The position numbers and the translations under genes were made by a program. A stretch of 64,000 nucleotides of DNA, from NCBI RefSeq assembly GCF_965641715.1, contig NZ_OZ282453.1; one strand, 5' to 3'. This stretch comes from Escherichia coli. GTDB taxonomy: Bacteria > Pseudomonadota > Gammaproteobacteria > Enterobacterales > Enterobacteriaceae. Below the pieces are notes generated by a model. The model saw nothing but the letters and a program-made list of their open reading frames with translations, made no database searches and was not told where the DNA came from. Below, piece after piece: positions 1 to 20,417 of the stretch; the stretch's first letter is position 1, and each line of letters starts with the position of its first letter.

Positions 1-2
1 CG

Positions 3-1179: not shown

Positions 1180-1193
1180 ATCGCAGGTAACAC

Positions 1194-2414
1194 ATGAAAT
1201 ATTTTTTCAATACCCGGCTGGGGGAAACCCGCTATCAGCTGGCTGACGGCTCGTTGCTGTGCAAAGACGTGCCGATAGGACGAACAGGTAAGCAGCTCTA
1301 TGGTGCTGATGACCTGCCAAAACTGAAACCCGATAAGTTCGGTGAAATAGTCGTCACGCGTTCTCCTGAGCAGGTATTCCATCCCGCCACGCTTGCCTCA
1401 TTCGAAGGAATGAGTATCACGGTGTTGCATCCCGAGGATGAAAACGGGGATGTGCGGCTGGTGAATCCAGAGAACTGGAAAGAGCTCGCGGTCGGGCATC
1501 TTCAGAATGTCCGGCGCGGGACGGGTGTGCAGTCTGATTTGATGCTGGCTGACCTTATCGTCAAAGACGAAAACGCCATTCAGCTGATCGAAGATGGCCT
1601 GCGCGAAGTGTCGTGTGGCTATGACGCGGAATATAAGCAGACTGAGCCGGGTAAGGCTGAGCAGGTTGATATTACCGGAAACCATGTGGCTCTTGTCCCT
1701 AAAGGCAGAGCCGGAAATCGTTGTGCAATTGGAGACAGAGACACAATGGCAAATCAAAAGAAAAGCTGGTGGACCCGCATGCGCACGGCCATCAAAACGG
1801 GTGACGCTGACACCATGAACGAACTGGTGGAGTCGGCTCCCGCATCGGTTACAGGAGATGAGGGGGATTTGCCGCAGGGCGTTAATCTCAACATCAACCT
1901 GTCCCCGCAGCAACCGCTACCGGACAAAGCACCAGAGATGGGCGGAGGTCCAACCGGCGACAGTGATGATGACCTCAAAACATTACTGAAAGCCCTGCTG
2001 GCTAAGCTGGAAGGAAATGCGACGGGCGATAACGACAATAAGCCTGACGATAATCCGACCGGTGACGGCGAGGACGATGAAGAGGAAACCACGATTACTG
2101 GTGACTCAGCCTGGCGTGCCGAAGTTATCGTTCCAGGTATCGATCTGAGCCGTAAGATGAAACCGACCGCGTTCAAACGCGAGGTTCTGGCTTCTGCTGA
2201 CAAAACGCTGGTTCGCCAGATAGTCGGTGATGCGGATATCCGCAAATTACCGAAACAATCGGTCGACATGGCGTTTAATGCCGTGTCTGAGATTGCCAAA
2301 GGGCGAAACACCCGCGCCACCACCGGCGATGCACAGCGCCCAAACATGGGCATGACCAGTATCGCTTCCCTGAACAAACAAAACGCTGAATTCTGGGCAA
2401 ACCGTAAAGGGTAA
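1194..2414 (+). CDS. phage head scaffold/protease-like protein
   Basis: 406-aa ORF between head morphogenesis and capsid genes; acidic Asp/Glu-rich linker; family assignment (DUF2213-like) is from memory only. Confidence 0.4.
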   Translation: MKYFFNTRLGETRYQLADGSLLCKDVPIGRTGKQLYGADDLPKLKPDKFGEIVVTRSPEQVFHPATLASFEGMSITVLHPEDENGDVRLVNPENWKELAVGHLQNVRRGTGVQSDLMLADLIVKDENAIQLIEDGLREVSCGYDAEYKQTEPGKAEQVDITGNHVALVPKGRAGNRCAIGDRDTMANQKKSWWTRMRTAIKTGDADTMNELVESAPASVTGDEGDLPQGVNLNINLSPQQPLPDKAPEMGGGPTGDSDDDLKTLLKALLAKLEGNATGDNDNKPDDNPTGDGEDDEEETTITGDSAWRAEVIVPGIDLSRKMKPTAFKREVLASADKTLVRQIVGDADIRKLPKQSVDMAFNAVSEIAKGRNTRATTGDAQRPNMGMTSIASLNKQNAEFWANRKG

Positions 2415-2417
2415 AAA

Positions 2418-2924
2418 ATGAATAATGTATTTCTGTACCGGATGCCTGTTGGCATTGCCGGGGCCGTCTCTCGCCCGCAGGACTTAACCGTCGAACCGGT
2501 GGTCCTTAAATCCGATAACGCCTTCGCTGCCTATGGGCTGGCTGGTAAATACGATGATGACGGTTTTTTTGTACCGCTGGCAGATGGTGATACCGCAGAC
2601 AAGGTGAAGGGGATCTACGTGCGCCCTTATCCGACCATTTCGCAGCCGGACATGGTTCGCCAGGTGGGGAGTGGCAAGAACTTCCCGGGCGACGCCATGA
2701 AGCGTGGCTACGTGACCGTTAATCTCGGTTCTGATTTTGATGCCAGCACCATCAAAAAAGGCGACCCGGTATACGTTGTCGTCTCCACTGATGAATCCAT
2801 CAAAGTGCCGCTGGGTGGATTCATGTCCACGTCAGTCAGTGGCAAAAACGTGGTGCTGACCAACGCTGAATTCACAGGTGCCGGTGATGCTGACGGCAAT
2901 GCAGAAATTTCCTGGAAGATTTAA
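2418..2924 (+). CDS. phage structural protein (possible head decoration)
   Basis: 168-aa ORF tightly packed between scaffold-like and capsid genes. Confidence 0.35.
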   Translation: MNNVFLYRMPVGIAGAVSRPQDLTVEPVVLKSDNAFAAYGLAGKYDDDGFFVPLADGDTADKVKGIYVRPYPTISQPDMVRQVGSGKNFPGDAMKRGYVTVNLGSDFDASTIKKGDPVYVVVSTDESIKVPLGGFMSTSVSGKNVVLTNAEFTGAGDADGNAEISWKI

Positions 2925-2935
2925 GGAACAGACGA

Positions 2936-3877
2936 ATGATTACTTTTGATCAGGCAACCGTTGACAGCTCTGGTGCCTTTCTCATCGGGGAGCTGGAGCG
3001 ACTCGACCAGACGCTGAACCTGCCACTGGTGGGGTACACCTGGAGCCGCGATATTCAACTGCGTGAAGACGTCTCCATCGCAGATGACATTTCCAGCTGG
3101 ACGAATACCAGCTTCGCCGCTGCGGGTACTGGCGCAAATCCGAATGGAAAAAACTGGGTAGGCAAAGACTCAACCGCTATTGCTGGCGTGAACGTGGATA
3201 TCGGCAAATCCGGTAACCCGCTGAACCTGTGGGGGATGGAACTTGGCTGGACGGTCATAGAATTGCAGGCTGCTCAGCAGGTCGGCCGCCCGATTGATAC
3301 GCAGAAGTATGACGGTATGCAACTGAAATGGCAGATGGATAACGATGAACAGGTATATGTTGGCGATTCAGCATTAAACCTGAAAGGCCTTGTTACCCTG
3401 GACGGCGTGCCTGTCAACAACGCTGCCAAAACGTGGGCAACCTCAACACCGGACGAAATCCGCGCAAGCATTAACCAGGTGCTGTCTGATGCGTGGGCCG
3501 CTTCTGGTTACTCTGTGGTTCCGCGTGATTTGCTGATCCCGCCTGAGCAGTTTGCTCTGTTGTCCAGCATTATCGTTTCATCTGCGGGTAACCAGTCCCT
3601 GTTGACATACCTTCAGACCAACACCATCAGCTATCACCAGAACGGTGTTCCGCTGAATATCCGCGCGGTTAAATGGCTGAAAGGCCGTGGTGTGGGGAAT
3701 AAGGATCGCATGGTTGCGTACACCAACGATAAAAAATACGTCCGCTACCCGCTGGTTCCGCTTCAGAGCGTGCCGGTGCAATATCGCGGTCTGTATCAGA
3801 TCGTCACTTACTACGGCAAGCTGGGTGCAGTCGAGCCAGTGTACAAAGAAACCATTTCGTACGTTGATGGCATTTAA
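2936..3877 (+). CDS. phage major capsid protein
   Basis: 313-aa ORF in the canonical capsid position with RBS GGAACAGACGAATG; size and composition typical of a major capsid protein. Confidence 0.5.
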   Translation: MITFDQATVDSSGAFLIGELERLDQTLNLPLVGYTWSRDIQLREDVSIADDISSWTNTSFAAAGTGANPNGKNWVGKDSTAIAGVNVDIGKSGNPLNLWGMELGWTVIELQAAQQVGRPIDTQKYDGMQLKWQMDNDEQVYVGDSALNLKGLVTLDGVPVNNAAKTWATSTPDEIRASINQVLSDAWAASGYSVVPRDLLIPPEQFALLSSIIVSSAGNQSLLTYLQTNTISYHQNGVPLNIRAVKWLKGRGVGNKDRMVAYTNDKKYVRYPLVPLQSVPVQYRGLYQIVTYYGKLGAVEPVYKETISYVDGI

Positions 3878-3918
3878 CAGCCATATGGCCCCCTGGCGGG
3901 GCCATTAAGGATGACCCG

Positions 3919-4140
3919 ATGGCAAAAAATAATGCAGTAATACACGTACATACCCCGTTTGTGCTCACGCTTCCCGACGGTTCGCGGCGCGAGTTTGTTA
4001 AAGGCCGTCATGCTGTGGAGGAAGACGTTGCCACGCACTGGTTCACTCGTGCGCACGCGGAAGTATCCGTTGGCAAAGCCACAGACGCGCGTAACGAGGT
4101 AAAAAATGCCAAAGAATCAAAGTCTGCCAGCGGTAAGTGA
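3919..4140 (+). CDS. hypothetical phage protein
   Basis: 73-aa ORF in the head-tail joining region. Confidence 0.3.
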
Positions 4141-4513
4141 TTTTCGCCGCGACTTCCCGCAGTTTGCTGACCCTGCCAAATATCCCGAAGCGCAAATCCA
4201 GTTTCGTCTGAATCTGGCCGATGAACTGCTGAGCGAAAACGTCACCAGCAAAAAGTTGTTTCCGTACTTTGCCGGATTGTTCGTTGCACACTACATGACG
4301 CTCTGGGCGGCAGACATCCGGGCGATGCTGGCTGGCGGGCCGGGCGGTTCAACCAATGGTGTTCAGTCCTCAAAGTCCGTGGATAAGGTAAGCGTCAGTT
4401 ATGACACCAGCGCGACGCTGAATCCTGATGCAGGTTTCTGGAATAACACCCGATATGGCGCTGAATTTTATCAGTTGATCACGATGTTCGGTGCAGGTGG
4501 TCGCCAGCTATGA
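4106..4513 (+). CDS. phage head-tail adaptor-like protein
   Basis: 135-aa ORF overlapping its neighbours, co-oriented in the head-tail joining block. Confidence 0.35.
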
Positions 4514-5064
4514 GTTTCAAAAGCGGTGTAACAACGAGGGTGGATAACGCTAAGGCCATTCTGGATGCGCTCAGGTCGTTAACCAAAAAAGATGTGCTGG
4601 TCGGCATCCCTTCGGAAGACAGCGAGCGGGATGATGTTCCGTTTGGTAATGCGGGCATCGGTTACCTCAACGAATACGGCTCACCAGAGCAGAACATCCC
4701 GCCACGACCTCACCTGGTCCCCGGCGTTAAATCGGCAGAAGAGCAGACGGTGCCGCAGCTCAAAGCCGCGGCGCAGGCTGCACTTGATGGTAATGCTGCG
4801 GGAGCAGAAAGCGCACTCAACCGTGCCGGAACACTGGCCGCTAATGGCGTCAGGCGTTACATGACCATTACCGGCTTTACGCCGCTTGCTGACAGTACTG
4901 TTGAAGCCCGGGCTCGTCGGGGGCGCAAGGGGGCAACACTGGAACTTGCCCGGCGTGCTGCTGGCGAATCTCCGGGAACCGAACTGGCGAAACCATTAAT
5001 TGATACCGGGCAATATCGCAGAGCTATTACCCATGTTGTGAGGGATAAAGATGCCGACTCTTGA
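4510..5064 (+). CDS. phage head-tail joining protein
   Basis: 184-aa ORF; start overlaps upstream stop (ATGA). Confidence 0.35.
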
Positions 5065-5440
5065 TGTAACAGATGTGCTTTTTGACCCCGATTTTTGCGA
5101 CTTCAATTTGTGGGTAACACGCCGTGTGCAAACGGTGGATGAGGACGGGATCGGCAGCGACAGCGAAGTTAAAAAGCAGTTTGCCGGAGTCGTAACTGTT
5201 GATCGCTCTCTGGAAAACCGTCGTATGCAGGCCGGGCAGGTAATCAGTGGTGCAATTCTGATTGTGACGACTGAGCGACTGACGCAGGGACAGACTGGCC
5301 GTGATGCCGATATCGTGACGTATCAGGGCCGTGATTATCGTGTGACTTTCGTCGACCCGTATACAGCGTATGGTGCCGGATTCGTTCAGGCGCATTGTGA
5401 GTTGCTGCCGTTTGATGGGGGAATTCCGGTTGAGCAATAA
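5051..5440 (+). CDS. phage head-tail joining protein
   Basis: 129-aa ORF in the same co-oriented block. Confidence 0.35.
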   Translation: MPTLDVTDVLFDPDFCDFNLWVTRRVQTVDEDGIGSDSEVKKQFAGVVTVDRSLENRRMQAGQVISGAILIVTTERLTQGQTGRDADIVTYQGRDYRVTFVDPYTAYGAGFVQAHCELLPFDGGIPVEQ

Positions 5441-5978
5441 CACCAGCACAGAGCGCGGATGGCTGATACCAACCAGTGGCGATCCGGATTATGACGAAGC
5501 GCTCGACAGGCTGTTAAGCCAGTGGATGCGTAACGTTTCCGGTCTGTCTGCCGGGATGGTTCGTCCGCGCTGGCAGAAAGAGCAACCGCCACTGCTACCG
5601 GCTGAAACGAACTGGTGTGCGTTTGGGGTTATCGGATGGTCAGGTGATGACAGTCCGGCATTCACCAGACAGACCGATGATGGCTCTCAGCTCTGGCGGC
5701 ATGAAACGATTGAGTGTATGGCTTCGTTTTATGGTCCGGCGGGGATGGTGTATGCGTTCCGGTTTCGTGACGGTATATCTGTACCGCAGAACAACGCAGC
5801 ACTGAATGCGCTGGGGCTGTCTCTTGGCGATTACACAGGTCTGACTCCCTTCCCTGAACTTATTAATCAGCAATGGGTCCGCCGCTACGATATGACGGTG
5901 CGTCTGCGCCGGAAGGTTGTGCGCGAGTACGGTATTAAATCGCTGGTGGAAGCACCAGTCATCTTTTTCGGAGATTAA
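5370..5978 (+). CDS. phage tail completion-like protein (start uncertain, possibly TTG at 5430)
   Basis: ORF directly upstream of the sheath-like gene; alternative TTG start with GGGGGAA RBS. Confidence 0.3.
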   Translation: MVPDSFRRIVSCCRLMGEFRLSNNTSTERGWLIPTSGDPDYDEALDRLLSQWMRNVSGLSAGMVRPRWQKEQPPLLPAETNWCAFGVIGWSGDDSPAFTRQTDDGSQLWRHETIECMASFYGPAGMVYAFRFRDGISVPQNNAALNALGLSLGDYTGLTPFPELINQQWVRRYDMTVRLRRKVVREYGIKSLVEAPVIFFGD

Positions 5979-5981
5979 GCT

Positions 5982-7127
5982 ATGGCACAGGGCTTGCCTG
6001 TATCAAACGTTGTTAATGTTGATGTGATCATGTCGCCGCGTGCAGCATCAGGGCGAAATTTTGGTGCATTACTCATTCTCGGCCCGTCCACAATCATTCC
6101 GGTAAGTGAGCGCATTCGCCGTTATTCTGCCGCGGAAGATATTGGAAAAGATTTTGGCGTGGAATCACCAGAATATAAGGCTGCGCAGGTGTTTTTCTCT
6201 CAATCAACGAAACCTCAGGAGGTTTTTGTTGGTCGTTGGGTGAAAACGAAGGGAGACAGCGAACAGGCCACGCCTGAGACGCTGGAGCAGGCTGTGAATG
6301 CCATGCTCGATTATACTTCATGGTATGGGCTGGGGATTGCAGACGATGAAGATATTCCGGATGCAGACTGGCTGAAAGTGGCTGCGGCGATCGAATCCTC
6401 TTCTGTAAGCCGTATTCTGGCGATTACGACAAGCGATGAGAAATGCCTGCAGACTGCATCCAGCGATGATTTGGCATCAAAACTGAAAACCGCCGGATAT
6501 TCACGCAGTTTTATTCAGTATTCATCGGGTAATAAATACGCTGCGTTATCTGCATTTGGCCGGGCATTCACGGTTAATTTCAATGGCAGTAATACCGCGA
6601 TTACGCTCAAGTTTAAGCAGGAGCCGGGTGTCGGGTATGAAACACTGACAGTCAGCCAGGCATCGGCACTTGATGCAAAAAACTGCAATGTGTTCGTGTA
6701 CTACCAGAATGATACAGCTATCCTCCAGCAGGGAGTGATGGCTAACGGCGATTTCTTTGATGAACGCCACGGCCTGGACTGGTTACAGAATTATGTGCAG
6801 ACCAACCTCTATAACCTGCTTTATACCAGCACCACGAAAGTTCCCCAGACTGAAGCCGGTATTACCCGACTGTTATCAAATGTAGAAAAATCACTGGATC
6901 AGGCCGTTCAGAATGGACTGATTGCTCCGGGCGTATGGAACGGTGGCGACCTTGGTCAGTTGTCATCAGGTGACACGCTGCCCAAAGGTTATTACGTATA
7001 CGCCCAGCCGCTGGATGAACAGGCACAATCAGAACGTGAAGCCCGTAAGGCTCCGGTGATTCAGGCTGCAATAAAACTTGCAGGCGCGGTTCATTACGCT
7101 GACGTACAGATTAACGTTGTTCGCTAA
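5982..7127 (+). CDS. phage tail sheath-like protein
   Basis: 381-aa ORF immediately before tube-like and chaperone genes; order sheath-tube-chaperone-tape measure. Confidence 0.5.
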
Positions 7128-7137
7128 GGGGAAGTGA

Positions 7138-7578
7138 ATGTCTACCTATTCTTTTATGGATGTCACTGCGACGCTGACCGGCCCGACCGGTTCGATTGAC
7201 CTCGGGTACGGTTCTGCAAGTTCTGAAGAGGGGATTGTGGTTGCGATGGGCGGTCCTAAAAACACCATGATCATCGGTGCTGATGGCGAAGTGATGCACA
7301 GTCTCCATGCAGATAAAAGCGGGACGATCACCGTTAACCTTCTGAAGACATCACCGACAAATAAAAAATTGTCGCTGGCGTATAACGCACAGAGCCAGTC
7401 TTCTGCCACATGGGGGAATAACGTTATTGTGATCCGAAACAAGGTCAGCGGCGACATCATCACGGCACGTAGTGTTGCGTTCCAGAAACAACCGGATAAT
7501 GCCAACGCTAAAACCGGTAATACGATGCCGTGGGTGTTTGACTGCGGCAAGATTGACCAGGTTCTCGGGGAGTTTTAA
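7138..7578 (+). CDS. phage tail tube-like protein
   Basis: 146-aa ORF between sheath-like gene and tail assembly chaperone. Confidence 0.5.
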   Translation: MSTYSFMDVTATLTGPTGSIDLGYGSASSEEGIVVAMGGPKNTMIIGADGEVMHSLHADKSGTITVNLLKTSPTNKKLSLAYNAQSQSSATWGNNVIVIRNKVSGDIITARSVAFQKQPDNANAKTGNTMPWVFDCGKIDQVLGEF

Positions 7579-7581
7579 TAC

Positions 7582-8034
7582 ATGGAATTCGAAATCAAAG
7601 GCGTGAAATATCGCGTGGCAAAACTCAGCGTTTTTGACCAGCTGAAAGTGACCCGCAAACTTCTGCCGGTACTGGCGGGAATGATGTCAGATTTCGGGAG
7701 CATTCGCTCCCTGTTGCCTGCTGATGGCAAAATCGACACCGTGAAATTCGATCAGTTGAAACCGGTATTTGAAACCCTGCTTCCGCGTATCGCTGAGGAA
7801 CTGTCTTCCCTGACTGAAGAAGACACCAACGCGATTATTCATCCGTGCCTGGCCGTAGTATCACGTAAGCACATGGACGGATGGACGCCGGTATTTAAAA
7901 GCGGTCAGCTGATGTTCGATGATATCGACCTGCTAACCATGCTGCAGCTGGTGGCGCGGGTGGTCGCCGATTCGCTGGGAAATTTTTTGCCCGTGAGCCC
8001 TACCAGCCCGACGCCGGGCCAGCTTCAGGGTTGA
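7582..8034 (+). CDS. phage tail assembly chaperone
   Basis: 150-aa acidic protein directly upstream of the tape-measure gene; contains slippery heptamer T TTT TTG near its 3' end. Confidence 0.5.
   Translation: MEFEIKGVKYRVAKLSVFDQLKVTRKLLPVLAGMMSDFGSIRSLLPADGKIDTVKFDQLKPVFETLLPRIAEELSSLTEEDTNAIIHPCLAVVSRKHMDGWTPVFKSGQLMFDDIDLLTMLQLVARVVADSLGNFLPVSPTSPTPGQLQG
7983..7989 (+). promoter_or_regulatory. putative -1 programmed ribosomal frameshift site (T TTT TTG)
   Basis: Heptamer identical to the one in the P2-like E gene at 59153..59159; the -1 frame is open from here to 8222. Confidence 0.45.
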
Positions 8035-8222
8035 CCCTCAACAGCCTACCAGACGGGCTGTCTTATCTCCTTGACCCGGTTGATGCCGGGTTAATCCCTT
8101 ATTACGCGCTGAAGGATGGATCAATCGATCTGTGCGATATCGCGCTGATGAATGACCACCTGGCCGTTAAGGCTGACAACCAGCGCCGTATAGAGAAATG
8201 GAGAGAGGATAATGAACGCTGA
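8031..8222 (+). CDS. frameshift extension of tail assembly chaperone (-1 frame)
   Basis: -1 frame relative to 7582..8034, open across the slippery site. Confidence 0.4.
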   Translation: MTLNSLPDGLSYLLDPVDAGLIPYYALKDGSIDLCDIALMNDHLAVKADNQRRIEKWREDNER

Positions 8223-9582
8223 GACTATTAAAGATTTCCTCGTCTCGCTTGGTTTCGATATCGACGAAGCTGGCGCGGAAAAGTTCGATTCAGTCCTGGC
8301 CGGCACGACCGCAAACGCTATCAAAATGGGGCTGGCCGTCGAAGGTGCCGCGCTTACCGTGGTGGCCTTCACGGCTAAGATCGCCTCCGGTCTGGATAAT
8401 CTCTACTGGGCGTCACAGCGCACTGGCGCGACGGTACAGGGGATTCAGTCTATTGGCTATGCGGTTTCCCAAGTGGGCGGCAGCGTAGACGCGGCGCGCT
8501 CCTCTCTGGAAAGCCTCTCCCGATTTGTGCGTAACAATCCCGGCGCGGAAGGCTTCCTGAATCGCCTGGGCGTACAGACCCGTGACGCCAGCGGTAACAT
8601 GCGTGACATGGCCGCTATCTTTACGGGTGTCGGCCAGAAGCTCAGCAGCATGCCGTACTACCGGGCTAACCAGTATGCGCAGATGCTGGGGATTGACGAA
8701 AACACCCTCATGGCGATGCGCCGGGGTGTGGGCGGTTTCTCCGGGCACTACAGCGCAATGGCGAAGGCTATCGGCTTTAATGCTGACGAGGCGGCCAGAA
8801 GCTCCAATAAGTTCATGACTTCTCTGCGCGAGTTCGGCGCGATGGCAGGCATGGCCCGTGACAAAATCGGCTCTAATCTTGCTGGTGGTCTGGCGGGTTC
8901 GCTGGACACGCTGCGCCGTCATATTCTGGATAATTTCCCGCGCATCGAGCAGACCCTGACGAAAGCCATAAAAGGCATTCTGGCGCTCGGGGACATCATC
9001 GGGCGGTTGTTCTTCCGGCTTATTGAGGGGACATCCAGCCTTATTACCTGGTGGCAATCGCTGGATAAGCAAACCCGGGAGCTGATCTCGCTGTTTGGCG
9101 CACTGACGATTGCGCTGCGCATTCTGAACAGTACGTTCTGGATGTCGCCGGTTGGCCTCATTACCGCGCTGGCGGCGGGGATTGCCCTCCTGTGGGAGGA
9201 CTATCAGACCTGGAAGGAAGGCGGCGACAGCCTGATTGACTGGGGCAAGTGGAAACCGGAGGTCGATGCCGCGCTGAAGATGGTTCGTGACCTTAAAACG
9301 ACCGTTAACGATCTGGCGAAAGCGCTGGCGAAACTACTCAATATTGACCCCAAATCATGGTCCCTGAAGTGGGATTTCAGCAACTTCATCGACCAGATGG
9401 GCGAATTCAGCAAAATGCTGAACATGATCGCCGACCTGCTCAACGCTATCAAAGATGGACGCTGGGCTGATGCCGTCAGCATCGGCAAACAGATACTTAA
9501 TCAGGGCAGCGAAAATCCGTCAGCGATGCCGATGGTTACAGACAGCGCTAACAGTACTGCCGACTGGATTAAAGAGCACTGG

Positions 9583-9593
9583 GGATTCGATCC
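9583..9593. repeat. IS186 target-site duplication, left copy (GGATTCGATCC)
   Basis: 11 bp identical to 10933..10943, directly flanking the IS inverted repeats. Confidence 0.7.
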
Positions 9594-10932
9594 CATAAGC
9601 GCTAACTTAAGGGTTGAACCATCTGAAGAATGCGACGCCTCGGTGCCTCGTTAAGACGATGCCTCGCGTTCTTCAATTGCGTTTTGTAGGCTGTCAGGGA
9701 TACTGTCCCACGAATGGCCACCTGTAAGCTCCAGATGACCATTTTTGTTATTCTCCACAACGAGTTAGTTCTTCTTTTCGGATCCGGCACTTCTGGGGGG
9801 GAAATCCAGCGATGGCTGGATTATGTCGTCAATTAAAAATGCGGCGAGTAGATTAGCAAATATCCACGCTTTCGCGAGTTCAGGTTCCTTTGCACGCAAA
9901 GCATCCAGGTGCAGCAAACTTTTGAGCCGCTTAAAAGCCAGTTCAATTTGCCATCGCAGACGGTAACAATCAGCCACTTGCTCTGCTGAATATTCATCTT
10001 CCGGTAATGATGTTAGCAATAGCACATGGCCCGCTGCTTCCAGCGTTTCCGCCTGAACTACTCGTCCTTTTCGACGATTCTCGCTGAGCAGTCGGGTTTT
10101 ACTGATTAATGCTTTTTCGGGAGGAAGTGATACGGCAATGAGACGTGCCGGAAAGGGAGCTCCGGCTTTTTTATTACCTGAATTGCCTATCATTACAGTG
10201 GTTTCACCGTTCTTACCGCAATCCAGCCCGCGCAGAAAACCCATCATGTCAAAGCGCATTCCTTCTGCAGTTAACCAGCGCAATCCTCGCCAGTGAACCC
10301 GGACGATATAATCAGCTTCTCCAAAAGCAAGTGAGCGGATACATTCGGGACGCGAACCGAATCCCCGGTCAGCAATGCGTATCTCGTCTGCCGTTTGCGC
10401 AAATCGGTCCAGCCGTTCAGCGTCTCTGCTGTCGGTTAGCTCAAAATCAGTGAACTGACAGGTATGAGGATCATATCCCATATGTAGTCGCCATTCAGCG
10501 CTGCCGCCCCCGGGCGCACTGATTGCTGTTCCATCGACAAGACGCAATCTCTTTCCGCTTGTACAACCCGTAACTGCGGCGCGTACAGCAAGTGTTTGTG
10601 CGGCAAGTATGCCAAACCAGTCGGCGGCATTCCGCAGCCGCTTCAGGAGAGCCACGTCAGATAATGTTGCAACGTCATGGAGCTGAGCCCATGCAGTGAC
10701 TTCACGTAATGACATCCCCCCGGGGCCGTAAGCCAGCCCCAGACGTAGCAGAGTTGCAGCATCACGAATTTCGCGGCGGCGGGTTAGAGCCCCGGCATTA
10801 CGTGCCGAAGTATCCAGTTCTTCGGGCTTACCAATATGGGCCAGAATTGCTGACCAGTTATCGTGAGAGTAATTCATCGGCACGTTAAATCATATCAGGC
10901 GTAATACCACAACCCTTAAGTTAGCGCTTATG
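9594..10932 (-). mobile_element. IS186 insertion sequence
   Basis: 23-bp perfect terminal inverted repeats CATAAGCGCTAACTTAAGGGTTG (9594..9616 and reverse complement 10910..10932) around a 372-aa IS4-family transposase. Confidence 0.85.
9765..10883 (-). CDS. insL: IS186 transposase
   Basis: 372-aa ORF beginning MPMNYSHDNWSAILAHIGKPEELD..., recognised as IS186 InsL. Confidence 0.8.
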   Translation of the reverse strand: MPMNYSHDNWSAILAHIGKPEELDTSARNAGALTRRREIRDAATLLRLGLAYGPGGMSLREVTAWAQLHDVATLSDVALLKRLRNAADWFGILAAQTLAVRAAVTGCTSGKRLRLVDGTAISAPGGGSAEWRLHMGYDPHTCQFTDFELTDSRDAERLDRFAQTADEIRIADRGFGSRPECIRSLAFGEADYIVRVHWRGLRWLTAEGMRFDMMGFLRGLDCGKNGETTVMIGNSGNKKAGAPFPARLIAVSLPPEKALISKTRLLSENRRKGRVVQAETLEAAGHVLLLTSLPEDEYSAEQVADCYRLRWQIELAFKRLKSLLHLDALRAKEPELAKAWIFANLLAAFLIDDIIQPSLDFPPRSAGSEKKN

Positions 10933-10943
10933 GGATTCGATCC
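10933..10943. repeat. IS186 target-site duplication, right copy
   Basis: Identical 11 bp to 9583..9593. Confidence 0.7.
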
Positions 10944-11549
10944 CCGCAGTGTGGGCCGGACGGTACGCGGCTGGTTTGGTGATGATGAGCCGGAACAACA
11001 TGCACAGGCTACGAAACGAGGAGAGCGGAATAACAATCCGGGAAACCTTAATTTTGCTGGTCAGGCGGGGGCTTCTCTTGAACACCCGGGCGGGCGATTT
11101 GCCAGATTTGAAACTGCCTTTGATGGATTACGGGCTCTTGCTCGTCAGTTAATGTTGTACGCCGGGCGAGGAATAAACAGTGTGGAAAAAATTATCTCTA
11201 CCTGGGCACCTGCCTCTGATAATAACAACACAACTGCGTATATCAGGGCTGTATCGCAACGACTGGGAGTGGATCCCCGGGCTGCCCTGAATATGAGCGA
11301 TCCGAAAACCATGTCAGCATTGATGAGCAGCATTATCCAGCATGAAAATGGAAGAAATATCTATTCTCGAGCGCTGATTAATAAGGCTGCCGTGGCGGGA
11401 ATTAGTGGCAAAATGACAGAGGTTAACCAGCAAAATACCTACCACATTTACGGTGGCGGAGATCCGCACGCTGTCGGTAATGAGGTTGCACGTCGGCAAC
11501 AGTCTGCAAATGCTCAGGTCATGCGAAGTAATCAGGTGAGGGTGGGTTA

Positions 11550-12137
11550 GTGGATATTCTCTCTACACTTTTTCATCAGCAGAGCAGAAAAATAGGAATG
11601 ATTGTTCCCAGTGTTGTTATTTCAGAGAAGCATACAGATATGCTTGAAATAACCGAGCATCCGGTAGAGGTCGGGGCTGCTGTCGCTGATCATGCCTATA
11701 AAAAACCGTCAGAAGTGGTGATGGAGGTTGGTTTCGCCGGTGGCGGCACATTGCTGGATTTTGCCAGTAACCTGACGGCTACCAGCCTGCTCGGCCTGAG
11801 TCCTCAGCAGACGTATCAGGAGCTACTGGATCTGCAGGAAAGCCGTATCCCCTTCGATGTGGTAACCGGTAAACGGCTGTACAGCAACATGTTGATCCGG
11901 GCGCTGGAAGTGACGACGGACAAGACAACCGAAAATGTCCTGTCCGCCGTCCTTACCCTGAGGGAGGTCCTTATCTCCCGGACACAGCAGATTACCGTCG
12001 CGGATAAAACCAACATGAAGGAAGGGGCCAGCACGTCGGCGGTACAGAATAGCGGCAACAAAACCACAAAGCCTCCAGATACTTCACTGCTGAAAAGCAT
12101 TACGGGTAACGTGGCGTCATTACTAGGAGGCGGCTAA
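11550..12137 (+). CDS. phage tail protein (possibly gpU-like)
   Basis: 195-aa ORF immediately after tape measure. Confidence 0.3.
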   Translation: MDILSTLFHQQSRKIGMIVPSVVISEKHTDMLEITEHPVEVGAAVADHAYKKPSEVVMEVGFAGGGTLLDFASNLTATSLLGLSPQQTYQELLDLQESRIPFDVVTGKRLYSNMLIRALEVTTDKTTENVLSAVLTLREVLISRTQQITVADKTNMKEGASTSAVQNSGNKTTKPPDTSLLKSITGNVASLLGGG

Positions 12138-12439
12138 TGACAATTCAGGAAATTCCGCTGACAGCGGACAACCAGCAGTTCAGCATCGTCCTGGGCGGTG
12201 TCACCTGGCGGATTAGCATCATATGGCGCGATCTGTACTGGATTATGGACCTGCAGAATGACAGAGGGGAGCCGGTAATCTCCGGTATTCCTCTCGTCAC
12301 TGGCGCTGATCTGCTGGCGCAGTACGCCTGTATGGGGCTTGGTTTTAAGCTGTTGGTGGTCTGCGATGACAACACACAGGATTATCCCACGAAAACTGAC
12401 CTGGGCAGTCGCAGCCATTTACTGGTATCAACGGAGTAA
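12137..12439 (+). CDS. phage tail protein (possibly gpX-like)
   Basis: 100-aa ORF translationally coupled to neighbours. Confidence 0.3.
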   Translation: MTIQEIPLTADNQQFSIVLGGVTWRISIIWRDLYWIMDLQNDRGEPVISGIPLVTGADLLAQYACMGLGFKLLVVCDDNTQDYPTKTDLGSRSHLLVSTE

Positions 12440-12441
12440 GC

Positions 12442-13503
12442 ATGTCACAGAACTGGATGAGACATTTCGAGCTGCAGCTTGTGGACGGGAACGGTCAGGG
12501 AATTGAGCTAAGTGATTTTAAAGTCACCTTTACGATCGACTGGTTCAACATCAGCAGTGCGTCCCGGGTAGGGACTATCAAAATTTATAACCTCTCGGCA
12601 GATACTGTGAACCGAATCACCGGGCAGGAGTTTTCGAAAGTGCGTCTGATTGCGGGTTACGACGGTATCGCGCCGGAGGTGTCGGCAAGCGACGTCGGGA
12701 CTGTGCGGGAAGTTGACGCGGCGGACGTGGGCCAGAGTGATGGCCGCAACTACGGACTAATTTTCAGCGGTGAAATTCGCTACTCGGTCACAGGAAAAGA
12801 CAGTCCGGTTGATTCCTACGTCCTGATTCAGGCAGCAGATACTGATCTGGCTTTTGCCACCAGTATAACCTCACAGACGCTGGCTGCCGGTTACACGGTC
12901 GCTGATGTGAACCGTGCGCTGATGAAAGACTTCGAAGCCAAAGGCGCGACCGAAGGCCTGACGCCTGAAATGCCTGCTACTGTATTCCCCCGGGGGCGGG
13001 TGCTCTTTGGCATGACGCGGCATCTAATGGATAACGTAGCCGGGCAATGTGGCGCAACATGGCAATTCGTGGACGGTCAGCGCCAGATGGTGGCGAATAA
13101 CGAATATGTTCACGAAGCGATTGTGCTCAACAGTGCTACCGGGCTTATTGGCATGCCGCAGCAGACCATCGGTAACGGCGTAAACGTCCGTGCGCTCATT
13201 AATCCGAACATCCGGGTTAACGGGCTCATTCAGCTGGATCAGGCTTCTGTATATCGCACCGCGTTGTCGAACAACGATATCGCTATGGCTGGTGGGCAGA
13301 TCACCGACCAGAACACGGACGGAAATATTACGCTCAGCGGCACCACATCACAGCCTGCCAGCATCGCAACGGATGGCGTTTATATTGTGCGCGGGATTAT
13401 GTACACTGGCGACACAAGGGGCCAGGTGTGGTACATGGATATGATGTGCGAAGCGCGTGGCGCGGCGGATCTGTATACGCAATCGGCTTTGCAAAGGGGA
13501 TGA
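12442..13503 (+). CDS. phage baseplate hub-like protein
   Basis: 353-aa ORF between tape measure-associated genes and baseplate genes. Confidence 0.4.
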   Translation: MSQNWMRHFELQLVDGNGQGIELSDFKVTFTIDWFNISSASRVGTIKIYNLSADTVNRITGQEFSKVRLIAGYDGIAPEVSASDVGTVREVDAADVGQSDGRNYGLIFSGEIRYSVTGKDSPVDSYVLIQAADTDLAFATSITSQTLAAGYTVADVNRALMKDFEAKGATEGLTPEMPATVFPRGRVLFGMTRHLMDNVAGQCGATWQFVDGQRQMVANNEYVHEAIVLNSATGLIGMPQQTIGNGVNVRALINPNIRVNGLIQLDQASVYRTALSNNDIAMAGGQITDQNTDGNITLSGTTSQPASIATDGVYIVRGIMYTGDTRGQVWYMDMMCEARGAADLYTQSALQRG

Positions 13504-13506
13504 GCA

Positions 13507-13848
13507 ATGAGGGGTATTATTTTTCTGTTAGCTGTCTTTTCTGCGTGCAGCGCGTGGGCGGATGGCTTCACGGTTAAATGCGGTGGCTACACTATGGTTG
13601 CAAACCAGGGCGAGTTATCGACAATCAACGGTGAAAGAGTTACCTCTCAAAAAATCACCGAACTGGGTACCAATGGTTTGAAAGTAGACATGGGGATTAT
13701 GCCTGCCAAAGACGGTAACAACTACGGCTTTGAATACATTCGTCGCCCTGGTACCGAAACGCGATTCCTGAATGTGCAACTGCTGCAGAACAGCATGGAC
13801 GCGCCGAAAATCATCGGGTCTTTCCCGTGTAAAAAGGTTAATCAGTAA
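13507..13848 (+). CDS. phage-encoded lipoprotein (possible exclusion protein)
   Basis: N-terminus MRGIIFLLAVFSACSAWA is a signal peptide with lipobox (FSAC); RBS AAGGGGA upstream. Confidence 0.5.
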   Translation: MRGIIFLLAVFSACSAWADGFTVKCGGYTMVANQGELSTINGERVTSQKITELGTNGLKVDMGIMPAKDGNNYGFEYIRRPGTETRFLNVQLLQNSMDAPKIIGSFPCKKVNQ

Positions 13849-13907
13849 AGCTATAATCCATTTCTGACATCAATTTCAGGCAGTTGATTCTGGGGTTAAG
13901 GATTATT

Positions 13908-14684
13908 ATGGCTACACCAGCTAAAGCATCCAGTAACTATGTTATCCAGTTCGGGGCGATGCTTGAAGAAAATGCTTCGATAGATGAGTTCACTTATCGT
14001 TACGTTTTACGCAATTATTCATCCAGCACTGAAGGCAACGATGTTAGCGCGGTTGGTTTTGCTTATGCTTTAAATGGTGAAGATGATCTAGCCTATGAAC
14101 ATTTTCATAAGCATCTGAAAATGGGCAACATCACTATTGCAAAGAATTTCGCTGCTTTCCTTTTCAAACGACATCACTACCGCCAGTTACATGAAATTAT
14201 TTATCAACTTGCTGATGCGTTTGGCGGGAAAATGTTGACTATGCTTGCTGCTGCGGAATCTTATCGGGTTGGTGACCTGGCGGCAATCCAGAAATACATG
14301 GAATGGCACTGTCGTTTACTGTCAGAAAACGATGACAAGTACGGAGCTGAAGCCTATATGCGTGAGCTTATCGATGGTGTTAAAGGATGTTACGAGGCAA
14401 AAGTTTGTACACCTGAGCAGTTTAGATTGCTTGGGGACATCACTCATTCGATCCTTGAAGAACGTAAACTTATTCCCGGTAGCTTGGGAATTTTCAGCTC
14501 TATGGGCGGTGATTATCTCGTGCAAGTGGAGAAAGCTACTCCGGAAGATATCGTTTTGATGAATTTTGATTTGGCTGAAAGGATATGTTCTGAGTCAAGG
14601 TTAGACGACTGTGAAATGACTGCTCGTTTCTCGGTTTTAAGGGAGTCCCATACGAAGGAAACTTATGACTATTCAGAGTTTTGA
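13908..14684 (+). CDS. hypothetical protein, partner of HEPN-like gene
   Basis: 258-aa ORF with RBS TAAGGA; AT-rich compared with flanking tail genes; 3' end overlaps next gene by 20 nt. Confidence 0.5.
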   Translation: MATPAKASSNYVIQFGAMLEENASIDEFTYRYVLRNYSSSTEGNDVSAVGFAYALNGEDDLAYEHFHKHLKMGNITIAKNFAAFLFKRHHYRQLHEIIYQLADAFGGKMLTMLAAAESYRVGDLAAIQKYMEWHCRLLSENDDKYGAEAYMRELIDGVKGCYEAKVCTPEQFRLLGDITHSILEERKLIPGSLGIFSSMGGDYLVQVEKATPEDIVLMNFDLAERICSESRLDDCEMTARFSVLRESHTKETYDYSEF

Positions 14685-15036
14685 TTTTTTGCGTTCAAGT
14701 GAACATTGTTTAACTCTGGACGAAGAAGTTGGTTATCGTAATGCCGTATCGCGAGCCTACTATGCTATGTTTCATCGTGCTGGCGAGGCTCTGAAGCATG
14801 TCCCCTCTGTAGAACATAATCACCATGCTAATTTAATCAACTACATGCAAGGTAGGATGGGCACACCTAAGGAAGAAATACCTCCTGCAAGATTAAAAAT
14901 ACTTGCATACGATCTCCGCCAAATGAGACAAGCGCGGAATGAAGCCGACTATCGCTTATCTGACTCCAAGATAAATGCTGACGTTGCCAAGGAATCATTA
15001 TTAACCGCGCAGCATTTTTTTAAACGGATTTCATAA
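14665..15036 (+). CDS. HEPN-domain-like protein
   Basis: 123-aa ORF with SRAYYAMFHRAGEAL helix resembling the HEPN fold; strong RBS GAAGGAAA. Confidence 0.5.
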   Translation: MTIQSFDFLRSSEHCLTLDEEVGYRNAVSRAYYAMFHRAGEALKHVPSVEHNHHANLINYMQGRMGTPKEEIPPARLKILAYDLRQMRQARNEADYRLSDSKINADVAKESLLTAQHFFKRIS

Positions 15037-15057
15037 AAAGTCACTATTTACCACGAA

Positions 15058-15079
15058 CCCGCCATCCGGCGGGTTTTTT
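15058..15079 (+). terminator. intrinsic terminator after HEPN cassette
   Basis: Hairpin CCCGCC-ATCC-GGCGGG followed by TTTTTT. Confidence 0.6.
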
Positions 15080-15098
15080 GCTTTCTGGAGCCTACTAA

Positions 15099-15851
15099 AT
15101 GGCAGTATCTGACCAGACCCGCAGCGGCGACCTTGCCGAAACATTCAAATCTGAACGGGAAACAACAAAGAACCAGATCCGTGTCGCCTTGCCTGGCATT
15201 ATTCAGTCATTCGATCCTGATGCGGTGACGGCAGTTGTGCAGCCTGCTATCCGTTCGGTTGAAAAGGATAATGACGGCAACCGCATTACCAAAAATTACC
15301 CATTGCTGGTGGATGTGCCAGTGGTATTCCCACGCGGCGGAGGATGTACGCTAACGTTCCCAGCTAAAGCCGGTGATGAATGTTTGGTGATTTTTGCCGA
15401 TCGTTGTATTGATTTCTGGTGGCAGAGTGGCGGGATACAGGAGCCGGTCGATGACAGAATGCATGATTTATCGGATGCGTTTTGTATTGTCGGTCCCCAG
15501 TCGCAGGCAAGGAAGATTAGCGGTATTAATACCAGTGCCACACAGTTGCGTAGTGACGACGGCAGCACCTATTTTGAGCTTAATCCTGATACCAGGAAAA
15601 TTAAAATTGTCGCTCCGGGTGGTCTTGATGTGGTTGCCCCTCTGGCTGATTTTTCTGAGAAAGTAACCATTCATGGCCTGTTAACCTGGATGGGGGGCAT
15701 GGTGGGGTCTGTTGTTTCTGGTGTGGCTTCAAAAATCACTGGTGCTGTTGAGTTTTTGGGTAGCGTGAAGGCTAACGGCAAGCTAATCGATGATACGCAC
15801 ACTCATGGTGGTGTTCAGCGCGGTGGAAGCAATACCGACGGAGTAAACTGA
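15099..15851 (+). CDS. phage baseplate spike/assembly protein (gpV-like)
   Basis: 250-aa ORF; position and size as in P2-type V-W-J-I order. Confidence 0.45.
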   Translation: MAVSDQTRSGDLAETFKSERETTKNQIRVALPGIIQSFDPDAVTAVVQPAIRSVEKDNDGNRITKNYPLLVDVPVVFPRGGGCTLTFPAKAGDECLVIFADRCIDFWWQSGGIQEPVDDRMHDLSDAFCIVGPQSQARKISGINTSATQLRSDDGSTYFELNPDTRKIKIVAPGGLDVVAPLADFSEKVTIHGLLTWMGGMVGSVVSGVASKITGAVEFLGSVKANGKLIDDTHTHGGVQRGGSNTDGVN

Positions 15852-16204
15852 TGCGATACAGACGTGAAGACGCCGATGGCGATTACACCTTTGGCAGCGG
15901 TGATGATACCTGGCTGATTAACTCACCGGAGGCCGTGGCGCAGGCGGTAAAAACGCGATTCGAATTGTGGTATGGGCAATGGTTTCTAGACACCACCGAA
16001 GGGACTCCGTGGATCCAGTCCGTACTCGGTAAGCAGAAGCCGGAAACCTACAACCTGGCGATCCGTAAGCGCATCCTCGAAACGCGGGGCGTTAAATCAA
16101 TCCTCTCTTTCAATACGACGGTGGATACCACGACCCGACGTGTCATGTTTTCCGCTGAAATCGACACTCTCTATGGAATAACGACTGTTACATCGGAGGC
16201 GTAA
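15851..16204 (+). CDS. phage baseplate wedge protein (gpW/gp25-like)
   Basis: 117-aa ORF coupled to neighbours. Confidence 0.45.
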   Translation: MRYRREDADGDYTFGSGDDTWLINSPEAVAQAVKTRFELWYGQWFLDTTEGTPWIQSVLGKQKPETYNLAIRKRILETRGVKSILSFNTTVDTTTRRVMFSAEIDTLYGITTVTSEA

Positions 16205-17403
16205 TGGCTCTGAACCTTGATTCTCTCGGTTTATCTGCAAAGGTAACCGCGGAGGGGATCAGTGCGCCTGATTATCAGACGATACTCAGCACCCTGATTA
16301 GCTATTTTCAGCAGATTTATGGCAGTGATGCCTACCTCGAACCGGACAGCAAAGACGGCCAGATGGTGGCTCTGATGGCGCTGGCGATTCATGATGCCAA
16401 TAATATGGCGATAACTGTCTACAACTGTTTTTCACCGGCAACCGGCTATGGGGCTGCACTCACCAGTAACGTGAAAATAAATGGTATTTCACGTAAAGGC
16501 GCGACGAACTCTACGGTTGATTTGCTTCTTACAGGAACTGCCGGAACAACCATCATTAATGGCAGCGTGAAAGACAGTAATAATGTGATATGGCGTTTGC
16601 CTGCTTCAGTGGTGGTCGGCGTGGATGGTACAGTGATGGCGACCGCAACATGTTCCGTCAGTGGTGCAGTGGCGGCGCTGGCTGGAACTATCACTGAAAT
16701 TAATACGCCAACCCGTGGCTGGGTTTCGGTAACTAATCCTGCTGCGGCTACTGTTGGCTCTCCGGCAGAAACTGATGCTGAGTTACGTATCCGCCAGTCG
16801 CAAAGTGTTGCATTGCCATCAATAACCCCATTTGAAGCACTGGATGGTGCTGTTTCTAATGTTACCGGTGTAACCCGCCACAAACTCTATGAAAACGATA
16901 CTGGTTCGGAGGACGGTAACGGGTTACCGCCACACTCTGTTGCTGTAATTGTGGATGGCGGTGATGTGACGGATATTGCTCAGGCTATCAGAGGGAATAA
17001 AGGCCAGGGGACAGCCACTCACGGTACAACATCCGTTACGGTTCCGGATAAATACGGCAATCCCCATGTAATCAAATTCTCGCGTTCCAGTGATGTACCT
17101 GTTTATGCCCGGATTAAATTAAAAGTTTTTACGGGTTATACCTCACAGATAGGGCAGCAGATCCAGCAGGCTATTTCCGACTATATCAATAGTCTGATGA
17201 TTGGTGATTCGGTCCTTTTAAGTCGCATTTACTCACCGGCGAATCTTGGCGTGGTGAGTGGCGGGAATGCACGCTATTACGATATTCAGGAACTGACGAT
17301 TGGGAAATCCCAGGGGACTTTGTCGTCATCAAACATTGATATCAGATATAACGAATCTGCGTCCTGTACCCCGGAAAATATCGTTATAACGGTGGAGTCA
17401 TGA
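16204..17403 (+). CDS. phage baseplate protein (gpJ-like)
   Basis: 399-aa ORF following the W-like gene. Confidence 0.45.
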   Translation: MALNLDSLGLSAKVTAEGISAPDYQTILSTLISYFQQIYGSDAYLEPDSKDGQMVALMALAIHDANNMAITVYNCFSPATGYGAALTSNVKINGISRKGATNSTVDLLLTGTAGTTIINGSVKDSNNVIWRLPASVVVGVDGTVMATATCSVSGAVAALAGTITEINTPTRGWVSVTNPAAATVGSPAETDAELRIRQSQSVALPSITPFEALDGAVSNVTGVTRHKLYENDTGSEDGNGLPPHSVAVIVDGGDVTDIAQAIRGNKGQGTATHGTTSVTVPDKYGNPHVIKFSRSSDVPVYARIKLKVFTGYTSQIGQQIQQAISDYINSLMIGDSVLLSRIYSPANLGVVSGGNARYYDIQELTIGKSQGTLSSSNIDIRYNESASCTPENIVITVES

Positions 17404-18080
17404 GCAAATACACCGAACTAATCACAAACTACCACGCCTCCAAACCTAAATTTCTTTCACATGTTGATCTGATGACCCGGCCGCTTATTGATGTTGCGGC
17501 TGCCACCAGAGGGCTGATTACTGCATTTGATATCGACTCTGCGGTTGGTGTGCAACTTGACATTCTGGGATTGTGGATCGGACGTAGCCGTGTTGTCAGC
17601 CAGCCTATTTCAGGTGTCTATTTCAGCTGGGATACCGACGGGATTGGATATGATCAGGGGGTATGGCAGGGACCATACGATCCTGATTCAGGATACATGT
17701 ATCTCAGCGATGAAACTTATCGTGTCATTCTTAAAGCGAAGACTGCGATTAATAACTGGGACGGACGGAATGATTCGCTTCCGGCAATTCTTGACGCGGC
17801 AACAGCAGGATCCGGGCTGCGAATGCAGATAGTCGATAACCAGGACATGACGATATCGGTCAGGGTCTTTCCTGATACTGATATTTCAGATGTATCGCGT
17901 GAGTTAATTGCGGCAATTAAACAGGGGTATCTCACAGTAAAAGCCGCCGGGGTATGGGCGGGTGGCATTGAAACACCTTCGGTGGAAACCCCATCGGAAG
18001 GCTCAAAATTTTTTGGTTTTGATATGGATAACGAATTCATCAGTGGTTTTGATGTAGGGGCATGGGGAGTATTACTCTGA
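17400..18080 (+). CDS. phage tail protein (gpI-like)
   Basis: 226-aa ORF preceding the tail fibre gene. Confidence 0.4.
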
Positions 18081-18871
18081 TGGCGAAAAATGACTTTAAA
18101 GCGTTTGCAACTGATCGGAATGCCAATGTTATGTCGCAGGAGGAATGGGAAGCGTTGCCTGCGCTTTTATCCGGATTTACAGCAGGGAAAGCATCCAGTG
18201 CGCAAGTCAATAAGGTTATTCGGCAGGCCAGCTTTATTGCTGCAGCTCTGGCCCAGTTTGTAAGTGACAAAACGCAACGGGATGTGCTTGATAATGGTGA
18301 TCTGCCCGGTTTTGTTGAATTGCTGGGATCGGGGTTTGCTGTTGAATACCTGAGCCGCAAGAATCCGTTTGGCGATATCAAATCGGATGGCACGGTGAAA
18401 ACGGCTCTCGAAAACCTTGGTTTGGGAGAAGCGGCAAAACGGAATGTGGGCAACGGGGAAAACCAAATCCCTGATATGTCTTTCTGGACGGTTACTGGTG
18501 GCAATGGAAATTTTGTGATTCGTCAACCTGACGGGCTAATCATTCAGATGGTTACTGTAAGTATAAGCGGTCCAGTGGCGATGAATGGAATGACTGATAA
18601 TGCTTATGCCATTACAGGTTCTAATAAGTCTTATATTGCCACAGCCACATTGCCCTTTGTATTTCCTAATAAGGTGCTGGGCGTTATCCCTCTGGTATCA
18701 ACAACAGCTTATGGTGGTGTATCCAGTAATATTACAGGTTCATACGCGACGGCGGTTTGTTCTTTTGCCGCTGTCAGGGGGAATAATACGATTGTGTTCA
18801 AAGTCGACAAACCACTGAATGCAGCCTTTCCTTCAGATACCAGCGTCTCAGCGTTAATCATTGGACGGTAA
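18062..18871 (+). CDS. phage tail fibre protein (constant N-terminal part fused to variable C-terminal part in current orientation)
   Basis: Start may be ATG at 18083; recombination-site-encoded ENLGLGE motif at 18412..18431 splits constant and variable parts. Confidence 0.5.
18412..18431. repeat. gix-like inversion crossover site, left (AAACCTTGGTTTGGGAGAAG)
   Basis: 19/20 inverted repeat of 20337..20356; AAACC-TT-GGTTT half-site structure as in Gin/Hin/Pin sites; lies inside the fibre ORF. Confidence 0.55.
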
Positions 18872-18873
18872 GA

Positions 18874-20336: not shown

Positions 20337-20356
20337 CTTCTCCCAAACCAACGTTT
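20337..20356. repeat. gix-like inversion crossover site, right
   Basis: Reverse complement matches left site 19/20; 62 bp upstream of the invertase start. Confidence 0.55.
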
Positions 20357-20417
20357 ATGAAAATGCAGAAATAACAAGCAAATGGCATCATTCCTGCTTT
20401 TGTCAGGGGGGGGGACC

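Follow-up and report, generated by a model that had tools for sequence, protein, structure and literature searches.

A tape-measure protein (TMP) gene of a SEN34-like prophage that lies at argW in E. coli is split by a complete copy of IS186. We give a probability of about 90% to the reading that IS186 inserted recently in this gene and that the insertion disabled the tails of the prophage. The window, i.e. the whole 64-kb stretch of DNA that was analysed, contains both halves of the gene, the tail genes on either side and the chromosomal end of the prophage. IS186, its target preference and the inactivation of prophages by IS elements are all known, and the case described here is a clean but ordinary instance of them. 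It exemplifies how IS elements are known to ground prophages, and it raises no new question. Nothing specific emerged from a search of the literature on tape-measure genes disrupted by IS elements in prophages of E. coli. The practical value of the finding lies in annotation, as the prophage can be marked as very probably tail-defective.

The IS186 copy, the intact allele and the target site

The element occupies positions 9594–10932, belongs to the IS4 family and is complete with a length of 1339 bp. It lies on the minus strand, with the transposase reading leftward, and is therefore antisense to the tail operon. Comparison with IS186A of E. coli K-12 MG1655, annotated as mobile element 15387–16731 with the gene insL1 (‘IS186/IS421 family transposase’), showed identity at 1339/1339 positions. 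The terminal inverted repeat at the end distal to the transposase start (9594–9616, plus strand) reads CATAAGCGCTAACTTAAGGGTTG and matches the other end at 23/23 positions, since the repeat at the proximal end (10910–10932, minus strand) is its perfect reverse complement; identity between the two ends stops at base 23. No further copies of the CATAAGCGCTAACTTAAGGGTTG pattern were present elsewhere in the window, and shuffled sequences gave an expectation of 0. One long ORF fills the element. Called mechanically, it runs from a GTG start at 10883 to 9765 on the minus strand, and the InsL start annotated in K-12 corresponds to 10877, so that insL occupies 9765–10877 (minus strand) and encodes 370 aa without interruption. 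Its DNA is identical to that of K-12 insL1, and the product scored 93.7 bits against Pfam PF01609 (DDE_Tnp_1; cut-off 23) and 133.2 bits against NCBIfam NF033592 (IS4-family transposase; cut-off 115). The preliminary description had named the element IS186 and had claimed an intact transposase and terminal inverted repeats that match perfectly over 23 bp. The identity to K-12 IS186A, the absence of mismatches between the repeats and the open transposase ORF that passes both family cut-offs bear this out, and the comparison with the K-12 reference did not contradict the name. The K-12 element is active in K-12 lines (PMC5009759) and, judged from its identity to that element, the copy in the window is probably competent for transposition.

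At least 99% identity to the element was found for thousands of copies in 5,426 complete E. coli genomes. Those that match at 100% carry the labels IS186B or IS421-family transposase, and many of them are listed in RefSeq as ‘IS4-like element IS421 family transposase’. IS421 was considered instead of IS186 and rejected, as the element is base for base the K-12 IS186A and ‘IS421’ is only a naming variant in RefSeq.

Deletion of 9594–10943 in silico joins 8212–9593 to 10944–11550 and yields an ORF of 1989 nt, encoding 662 aa and a stop. This agrees with the earlier claim that excision of IS186 and one repeat restores a frame of 663 codons (662 codons plus the stop). When the left half was used as a query, a single genome matched at 100%, that of E. 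coli TL20 (NZ_CP191567.1). The TL20 gene is uninterrupted, has 1989 nt and encodes WP_053275916.1; the excised ORF of the window is identical to it at 1989/1989 nt, and 8212–9593 corresponds to its codons 1–461 with 100% identity. The empty site of TL20 reads CACT-GGGG-ATTCGAT-CCCC-GCAG (CACTGGGGATTCGATCCCCGCAG) and holds GGATTCGATCC once. The identical 662-aa protein, with the same empty site, is found in GCA_032174015.2 and in ENA ERZ27297162. The uninterrupted allele, which the preliminary description had proposed to look for in other strains, is thus present in the sequence records of TL20 and of these two assemblies. The match with TL20 is direct evidence of the pre-insertion allele, beyond a frame that is merely reconstructed.

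In the window GGATTCGATCC is present as two identical copies, at 9583–9593 to the left and at 10933–10943 to the right of the element, when the target-site duplication is delimited in the classical way at 11 bp. With a slash for the IS186 edge, the left junction reads ...CACTGGGGATTCGATCC/CATAAGCGCTAACTTAAGGGTTG... and the right junction ...CAACCCTTAAGTTAGCGCTTATG/GGATTCGATCCCCGCAG... The span of 9583–10943 that was given earlier runs exactly from the left repeat through the right repeat, and the ‘11-bp target duplication’ of the preliminary description is acceptable as the reading that goes with 23-bp inverted repeats. How long the duplication is taken to be varies with the placement of the ends of the element: it is 7 nt for the core, 11 nt in the classical definition and 13 nt for the stretch shared in comparison with the empty site (GGGATTCGATCCC). 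Because the target is G/C-palindromic, the sequence by itself does not fix the edge between IS186 and target. Lee et al. (2016) treat just the 7-nt core as duplicated (PMC5009759), and the annotation of MG1655 places the ends of IS186 3 bp wider on each side, which makes the element 1345 bp long. The three K-12 copies were tried as a guide to the edge and were uninformative, as all have the same CC/GG beside the repeats (...CC/CATAAG...CTTATG/GG...) and all lie in GGGG-N6-CCCC, namely in GGGG-ATCACT-CCCC, GGGG-AGTAAT-CCCC and GGGG-ATAATT-CCCC.

The target of IS186 has been described as 5'-GGGG(N6/N7)CCCC-3', a motif that K-12 has at only 54 sites and into which the element inserts in both orientations; for the insertions of Lee et al. 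with recovered sites, the core was 6 bp in 41/59 and 7 bp in 16/59 (PMC5009759). The empty site GGGG-ATTCGAT-CCCC is a perfect N7 form of this motif. GGGG(N6/N7)CCCC occurs at two places in the window after excision, at this site and at ~55.16 kb in the chromosome. The allele of Sx181-0-1, which is 95% identical, has GGGGATTCGATCCTC at the same place; it differs from the motif by one synonymous change and provides no canonical site. The insertion is a clean natural case of IS186 using GGGG(N7)CCCC within coding sequence, and other strains carry the allele exactly as it was before the event. An IS186 copy transposed into GGGG-ATTCGAT-CCCC in the TMP gene of the prophage at argW, and staggered cleavage followed by repair left the target in two copies (GGATTCGATCC when delimited classically).

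The interrupted gene and its prophage

The length of a tape-measure protein sets the length of the phage tail, and the protein sits in the lumen of the tail tube. The restored protein matched phrog_2276 (‘tail length tape measure protein’) over residues 1–662 with an E-value of 1.7e-281. With 100% of its length aligned, it shares 75.5% identity with the protein annotated as TMP in Salmonella phage SEN34; homologues in several induced E. coli myoviruses are 71–73% identical to it (vB_EcoM-606R2 and others, 72.6%). Pfam PhageMin_Tail reached 21 bits with it, below the cut-off of 33.2. The gene stands in an ordered set of tail genes on the plus strand. Upstream are the tail sheath (5982–7127; Pfam DUF3383 and PHROGs tail sheath), the tail tube (7138–7578; Pfam KPP10_Orf10), the tail assembly chaperone (7582–8034; Pfam Phage_TAC_15 and PHROGs tail assembly chaperone) and a DUF6889 gene (8031–8222; Pfam DUF6889). 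The TMP gene is followed by a Dit-like baseplate protein (11550–12137; Pfam Dit_like), a plug (12137–12439; Pfam Pam3_gp18) and the baseplate hub (12442–13503; phrog_196 baseplate hub). TL20, Sx181-0-1 and a Klebsiella phage have the same tail gene order. The family match, the homology to SEN34 and the gene order all support the earlier statement that IS186 interrupts a tape-measure gene. SEN34 itself is a temperate myovirus that is induced by mitomycin and forms plaques; its tail is contractile and its regulation lambda-like (PMC5261728). The prophage in the window is best explained as a SEN34-like prophage of an E. coli host, with lambdoid regulation and a contractile tail. Its TMP is a full-length homologue of those of SEN34 and of phages of the vB_EcoM-606R2 type and is encoded in the same contractile-tail module, but the TMP genes of SEN34 and of the E. 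coli phages are unbroken, whereas the gene in the window is split by IS186.

The C-terminal part of the protein has relatives among muralytic proteins. Residues 485–617 matched PDB 9vvp_L, the N-terminus of Gp29 (E 1.1e-18), residues 484–607 matched PDB 7q47_A, ‘Endolysin’ (E 3.9e-13), and the region also matched phrog_873 (‘endolysin’) and phrog_7182 (‘tail injection transglycosylase’). Residues 485–617 are a putative muralytic-type domain, and it is because of this domain that RefSeq names the TMP ‘lytic transglycosylase’. The homologue in Klebsiella phage ST11-VIM1phi8.3 has 667 aa and is 65% identical over residues 1–486, with no match beyond; its depositor labelled it ‘lytic transglycosylase domain-containing’ (SLT). 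The two proteins share the N-terminal body, which is followed in both by a C-terminal region of ~180 aa, but they differ in the sequence of that region, and the version in the window resembles 7q47 and 9vvp Gp29. Since the homologues in some Klebsiella phages match only residues 1–486, the C-terminal module is exchangeable. It is presumably also needed, as every full-length relative inspected (TL20 with 662 aa, Sx181-0-1 with 669 aa and ST11-VIM1phi8.3 with 667 aa, all of them one polypeptide) has a C-terminal region of similar size.

The window opens within the portal gene, and the early and lysis regions of the prophage lie outside it. It is collinear with TL20: positions 1–9594 and 10932–18431 match at 99.99% with one SNP each, i.e. 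2 SNPs in 17,094 aligned bases. Both are nonsynonymous, one at 6207 in the sheath gene and the other at 17657 in a baseplate gene. The prophage ends with intS (23482–24675), which adjoins tRNA-Arg(CCT) at 24801–24875 (argW), and the chromosome continues with yfdC, mlaA, fadL and onward. No complete E. coli genome matches this chromosomal part at more than 99.6% identity.

Age of the insertion and fate of the split gene

The insertion with both junctions was found in 0/5,426 complete E. coli genomes, and a 40-mer across the left junction had no match among GTDB species representatives. In exact-protein look-ups, the 480-aa and 206-aa products of the two halves were found only in the draft assembly GCA_965259455.1, where two contigs carry them; each contig breaks off ~120 bp inside IS186 and is identical to the window. 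As the assembly and the window may derive from one and the same strain, this is perhaps no independent observation. The intact 662-aa protein was found in 226 blocks of the same collection. The best megablast matches, which covered 79% of the junction query, were considered as a second occurrence and set aside; they are most likely other IS186 copies whose G/C-rich flanks lengthen the alignment by chance, as is also the case at the flank of K-12 IS186A. The comparisons point to a recent, lineage-specific event. ‘Recent’ was also the view of the preliminary description, and the age estimate is now carried by the split gene, whose 1989 nt show 0 substitutions relative to TL20, by the 2 SNPs in ~17 kb, by the junction search and by the single assembly found for each fragment. 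The perfect 11-bp repeat and the 100% identity of the element say little on age by themselves, because identity of 99% or more is shared by almost all IS186 copies.

These data also bear on two other explanations. If the insertion were old and the prophage defective beforehand, IS186 would not be the inactivating event. Close to the tail fibres, the prophage of TL20 carries a truncated recombinase gene and a fragment of IS3, both marks of decay or mosaicism, and identity to TL20 falls sharply past 18431, with the early region outside the window. Against this stand the scarcity of differences from a strain with the intact gene, the absence of the insertion from 5,426 complete genomes, the commonness of the intact protein, and the structural ORFs in view, all of which are open. 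It is therefore very unlikely that the insertion is old and came to a prophage that was already defective. An assembly artefact, in which the IS186 repeat was misplaced during contig joining, could be suspected, since the flanks are on separate contigs that end in IS186 in GCA_965259455.1 and joining them needs scaffolding or long reads. However, both contig ends enter IS186 straight from the halves of one gene, and the canonical target is precisely duplicated; a misjoin would not duplicate a site that is single-copy in the intact allele. We consider an artefact hardly credible.

IS186 splits the TMP after P461, shortly before the muralytic domain, and cuts off the C-terminal 201 residues. The 5' fragment (8212–9654, plus strand) consists of 461 native and 19 IS-encoded residues (ISANLRVEPSEECDASVPR), i.e. 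480 aa, and ends at a TAA (9652–9654) within IS186. The 3' fragment (10930–11550, plus strand) is an ORF of 206 aa with the whole muralytic domain (TMP residues 485–617). Both termini of IS186 are identical and end outward in ...CTTATG, and the ATG of the 206-aa ORF at 10930 is formed by the final three bases of the element. It is in frame with the TMP, and therefore GFDP is encoded twice. Failure of the tail is very plausible because the 201 residues cut off include the muralytic module and the full-length relatives inspected all keep a C-terminal region of similar size. Tail assembly is strongly expected to fail without the full-length TMP, and the prophage is very probably tail-defective. 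Upon induction it would produce tail-less, non-infectious particles. In principle, the gene could be restored if IS186 were on rare occasions excised precisely between the direct repeats.

The insertion may also act on the gene downstream. The GTG start of the Dit-like gene overlaps the TMP stop by 1 nt (TA[G]TG), and because of this overlap its translation may fall; expression could drop through the loss of translational coupling with the TMP stop together with a hairpin within IS186. This hairpin (10147–10166, plus strand) resembles a terminator, has a T-run and is only a lead; a scan for promoters and terminators inside IS186 found no more sites than in shuffled sequences. The early and lysis regions of the TL20 prophage include genes for a holin, an endolysin and the Q antiterminator. 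Lambdoid antitermination by Q could override polarity, which is a point against this part of the explanation.

The split gene could also still work, with the 480-aa product as a shorter tape measure and the 206-aa fragment acting in trans by a muralytic activity or by binding to the hub. The in-frame ATG at the IS186 end (...CTTATG/GGA...) could allow some C-terminal product, which is a point against complete loss. The 206-aa ORF holds the entire muralytic domain, both fragments are called as genes by a gene caller, and the cut at residue 461 is close to the natural module boundary at ~486, beyond which the Klebsiella-phage relatives differ. However, the sole Shine-Dalgarno-like element upstream of the ATG is a weak TAAG, and the TMPs of TL20, Sx181-0-1 and ST11-VIM1phi8.3 are unsplit with 662–669 aa. 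Tape-measure proteins are generally known to assemble as a single chain that lies in the tube and reaches into the baseplate at one end; if the chain were broken, the measurement of length would no longer be coupled to initiation. We regard a working split TMP as very improbable. Separate expression of the C-terminal module is likewise unlikely, and there is only the slightest chance that the start codon at the IS186 terminus has led to a free-standing 206-aa lysozyme-like protein or to a two-piece tape measure. If this were true, IS186 would not simply have inactivated the gene but would have caused its fission at a natural boundary between domains. The preferred reading remains that the recent insertion of IS186 probably disabled the tails of the prophage.

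Relation to known IS186 insertions

The copy in the window resembles IS186A, IS186B and IS186C of K-12 in its sequence (scored here against IS186A), in the 23-bp repeats, in InsL and in the preference for GGGG(N6/N7)CCCC. It differs from them in location only, as it occupies an N7 site in the tape-measure gene of a prophage. An IS186 hot spot is known from the lon promoter of E. coli B, where insertion knocks out expression of the target and recurs often under selection (SaiSree et al., 2001, via PMC3045373). That case shares with the present one the element, a G/C-flanked hot-spot motif and insertion in either orientation, but it concerns a promoter, whereas the insertion described here is intragenic, lies in an accessory prophage gene and has been found in one lineage so far. 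The two junction sequences, which among public draft assemblies occur in one only, provide a strain-specific marker.

Possible mosaic structure of the prophage

The window is collinear with E. coli strain TL20 (NZ_CP191567.1), which carries an uninterrupted tape-measure gene. Identity to TL20 is 99.99% up to the left inverted repeat of the tail-fibre region (18431), where it falls abruptly, and the sequence beyond (18412-24700) is 94% (inverted segment), 85% and 97% identical. The tail-fibre, cargo and integrase end therefore differs in history from the head-tail module, and a mosaic or recombination boundary is suggested at this point. Over approximately 17 kb of prophage only two differences from TL20 were found, both nonsynonymous: at 6207, residue 76 of the sheath is Thr in the window and Pro in TL20, and at 17657, residue 86 of a 226-aa baseplate protein is Gln in the window and His in TL20.

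The invertible tail-fibre segment (18412-20356) is flanked by 20-nt inverted repeats, AAACCTTGGTTTGGGAGAAG and CTTCTCCCAAACCAACGTTT, at 18412-18431 and 20337-20356, which we take to resemble crossover sites of the Gin/Cin/Pin type. Between them lie two sets of genes for a tail-fibre C-terminus and its assembly protein, facing opposite ways. The orientation of the segment is reversed relative to TL20, in which the adjoining recombinase gene is reduced to a 123-bp remnant.

Non-structural and cargo genes

Three non-structural ORFs (13507-15036) lie between the genes for the baseplate hub and the spike, and may be moron or defence cargo within the tail operon. One encodes a 113-aa product with a signal-peptide-like N-terminus, and a 123-aa protein is annotated as HEPN in TL20 and scores 19.6 bits against Pfam HEPN, under the 22-bit cut-off. 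The 266-aa protein had no family match, and PADLOC matched none of the three. Cargo ORFs of 447 and 200 aa are located on the minus strand (20721-23147), between the tail fibres and the integrase gene intS (23482-24675). Neither had a Pfam family; the PADLOC matches of the 447-aa protein to Lit and PD-Lambda-2_B were faint only (E ~6e-4), with no single stretch passing.

The tape-measure C-terminus and the IS186 insertion

Residues 1-486 of the tape-measure protein are common to a protein of Klebsiella phage ST11-VIM1phi8.3 (positions 2501-4504 of sequence L010), while the C-terminal sequences differ: the Klebsiella phage relative is annotated as lytic transglycosylase domain-containing, whereas the module in the window resembles PDB entries 7q47 and 9vvp. 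A shared N-terminal part with differing C-termini points to module swapping among these relatives, at a putative boundary approximately 25 residues to the C-terminal side of the point where IS186 is inserted.

Both IS186 termini end outward in CTTATG, which places an outward-facing ATG at each end (10930-10932 and, mirrored, 9594-9596). The right-end ATG is in frame with the downstream tape-measure fragment and starts a 206-aa ORF, preceded by a weak Shine-Dalgarno-like sequence. Inside the element, antisense to the transposase gene, lies a terminator-like hairpin on the plus strand (10147-10176; GCCGGAAAGGGAGCTCCGGC then TTTTTTATTA), through which the insertion could exert a polar effect on the baseplate genes that follow; terminator-like sites in the scan showed no excess over shuffles.

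The K-12 MG1655 annotation draws IS186A (positions 388-1732 of sequence L001) as 1345 bp, corresponding to 9591-10935 in the window, and adds three bases per end (TCC...GGA) to the element defined by its 23-bp inverted repeats. Whether these bases are target-derived or IS-derived is a matter of convention, which accounts for the conflicting figures in the literature for the length of IS186 and the size of its duplication. A second IS186-type target, GGGGG-ATTGCT-CCCCC within ACGGGGGATTGCTCCCCCGTCG, lies empty at 55161-55177 in the chromosomal part.
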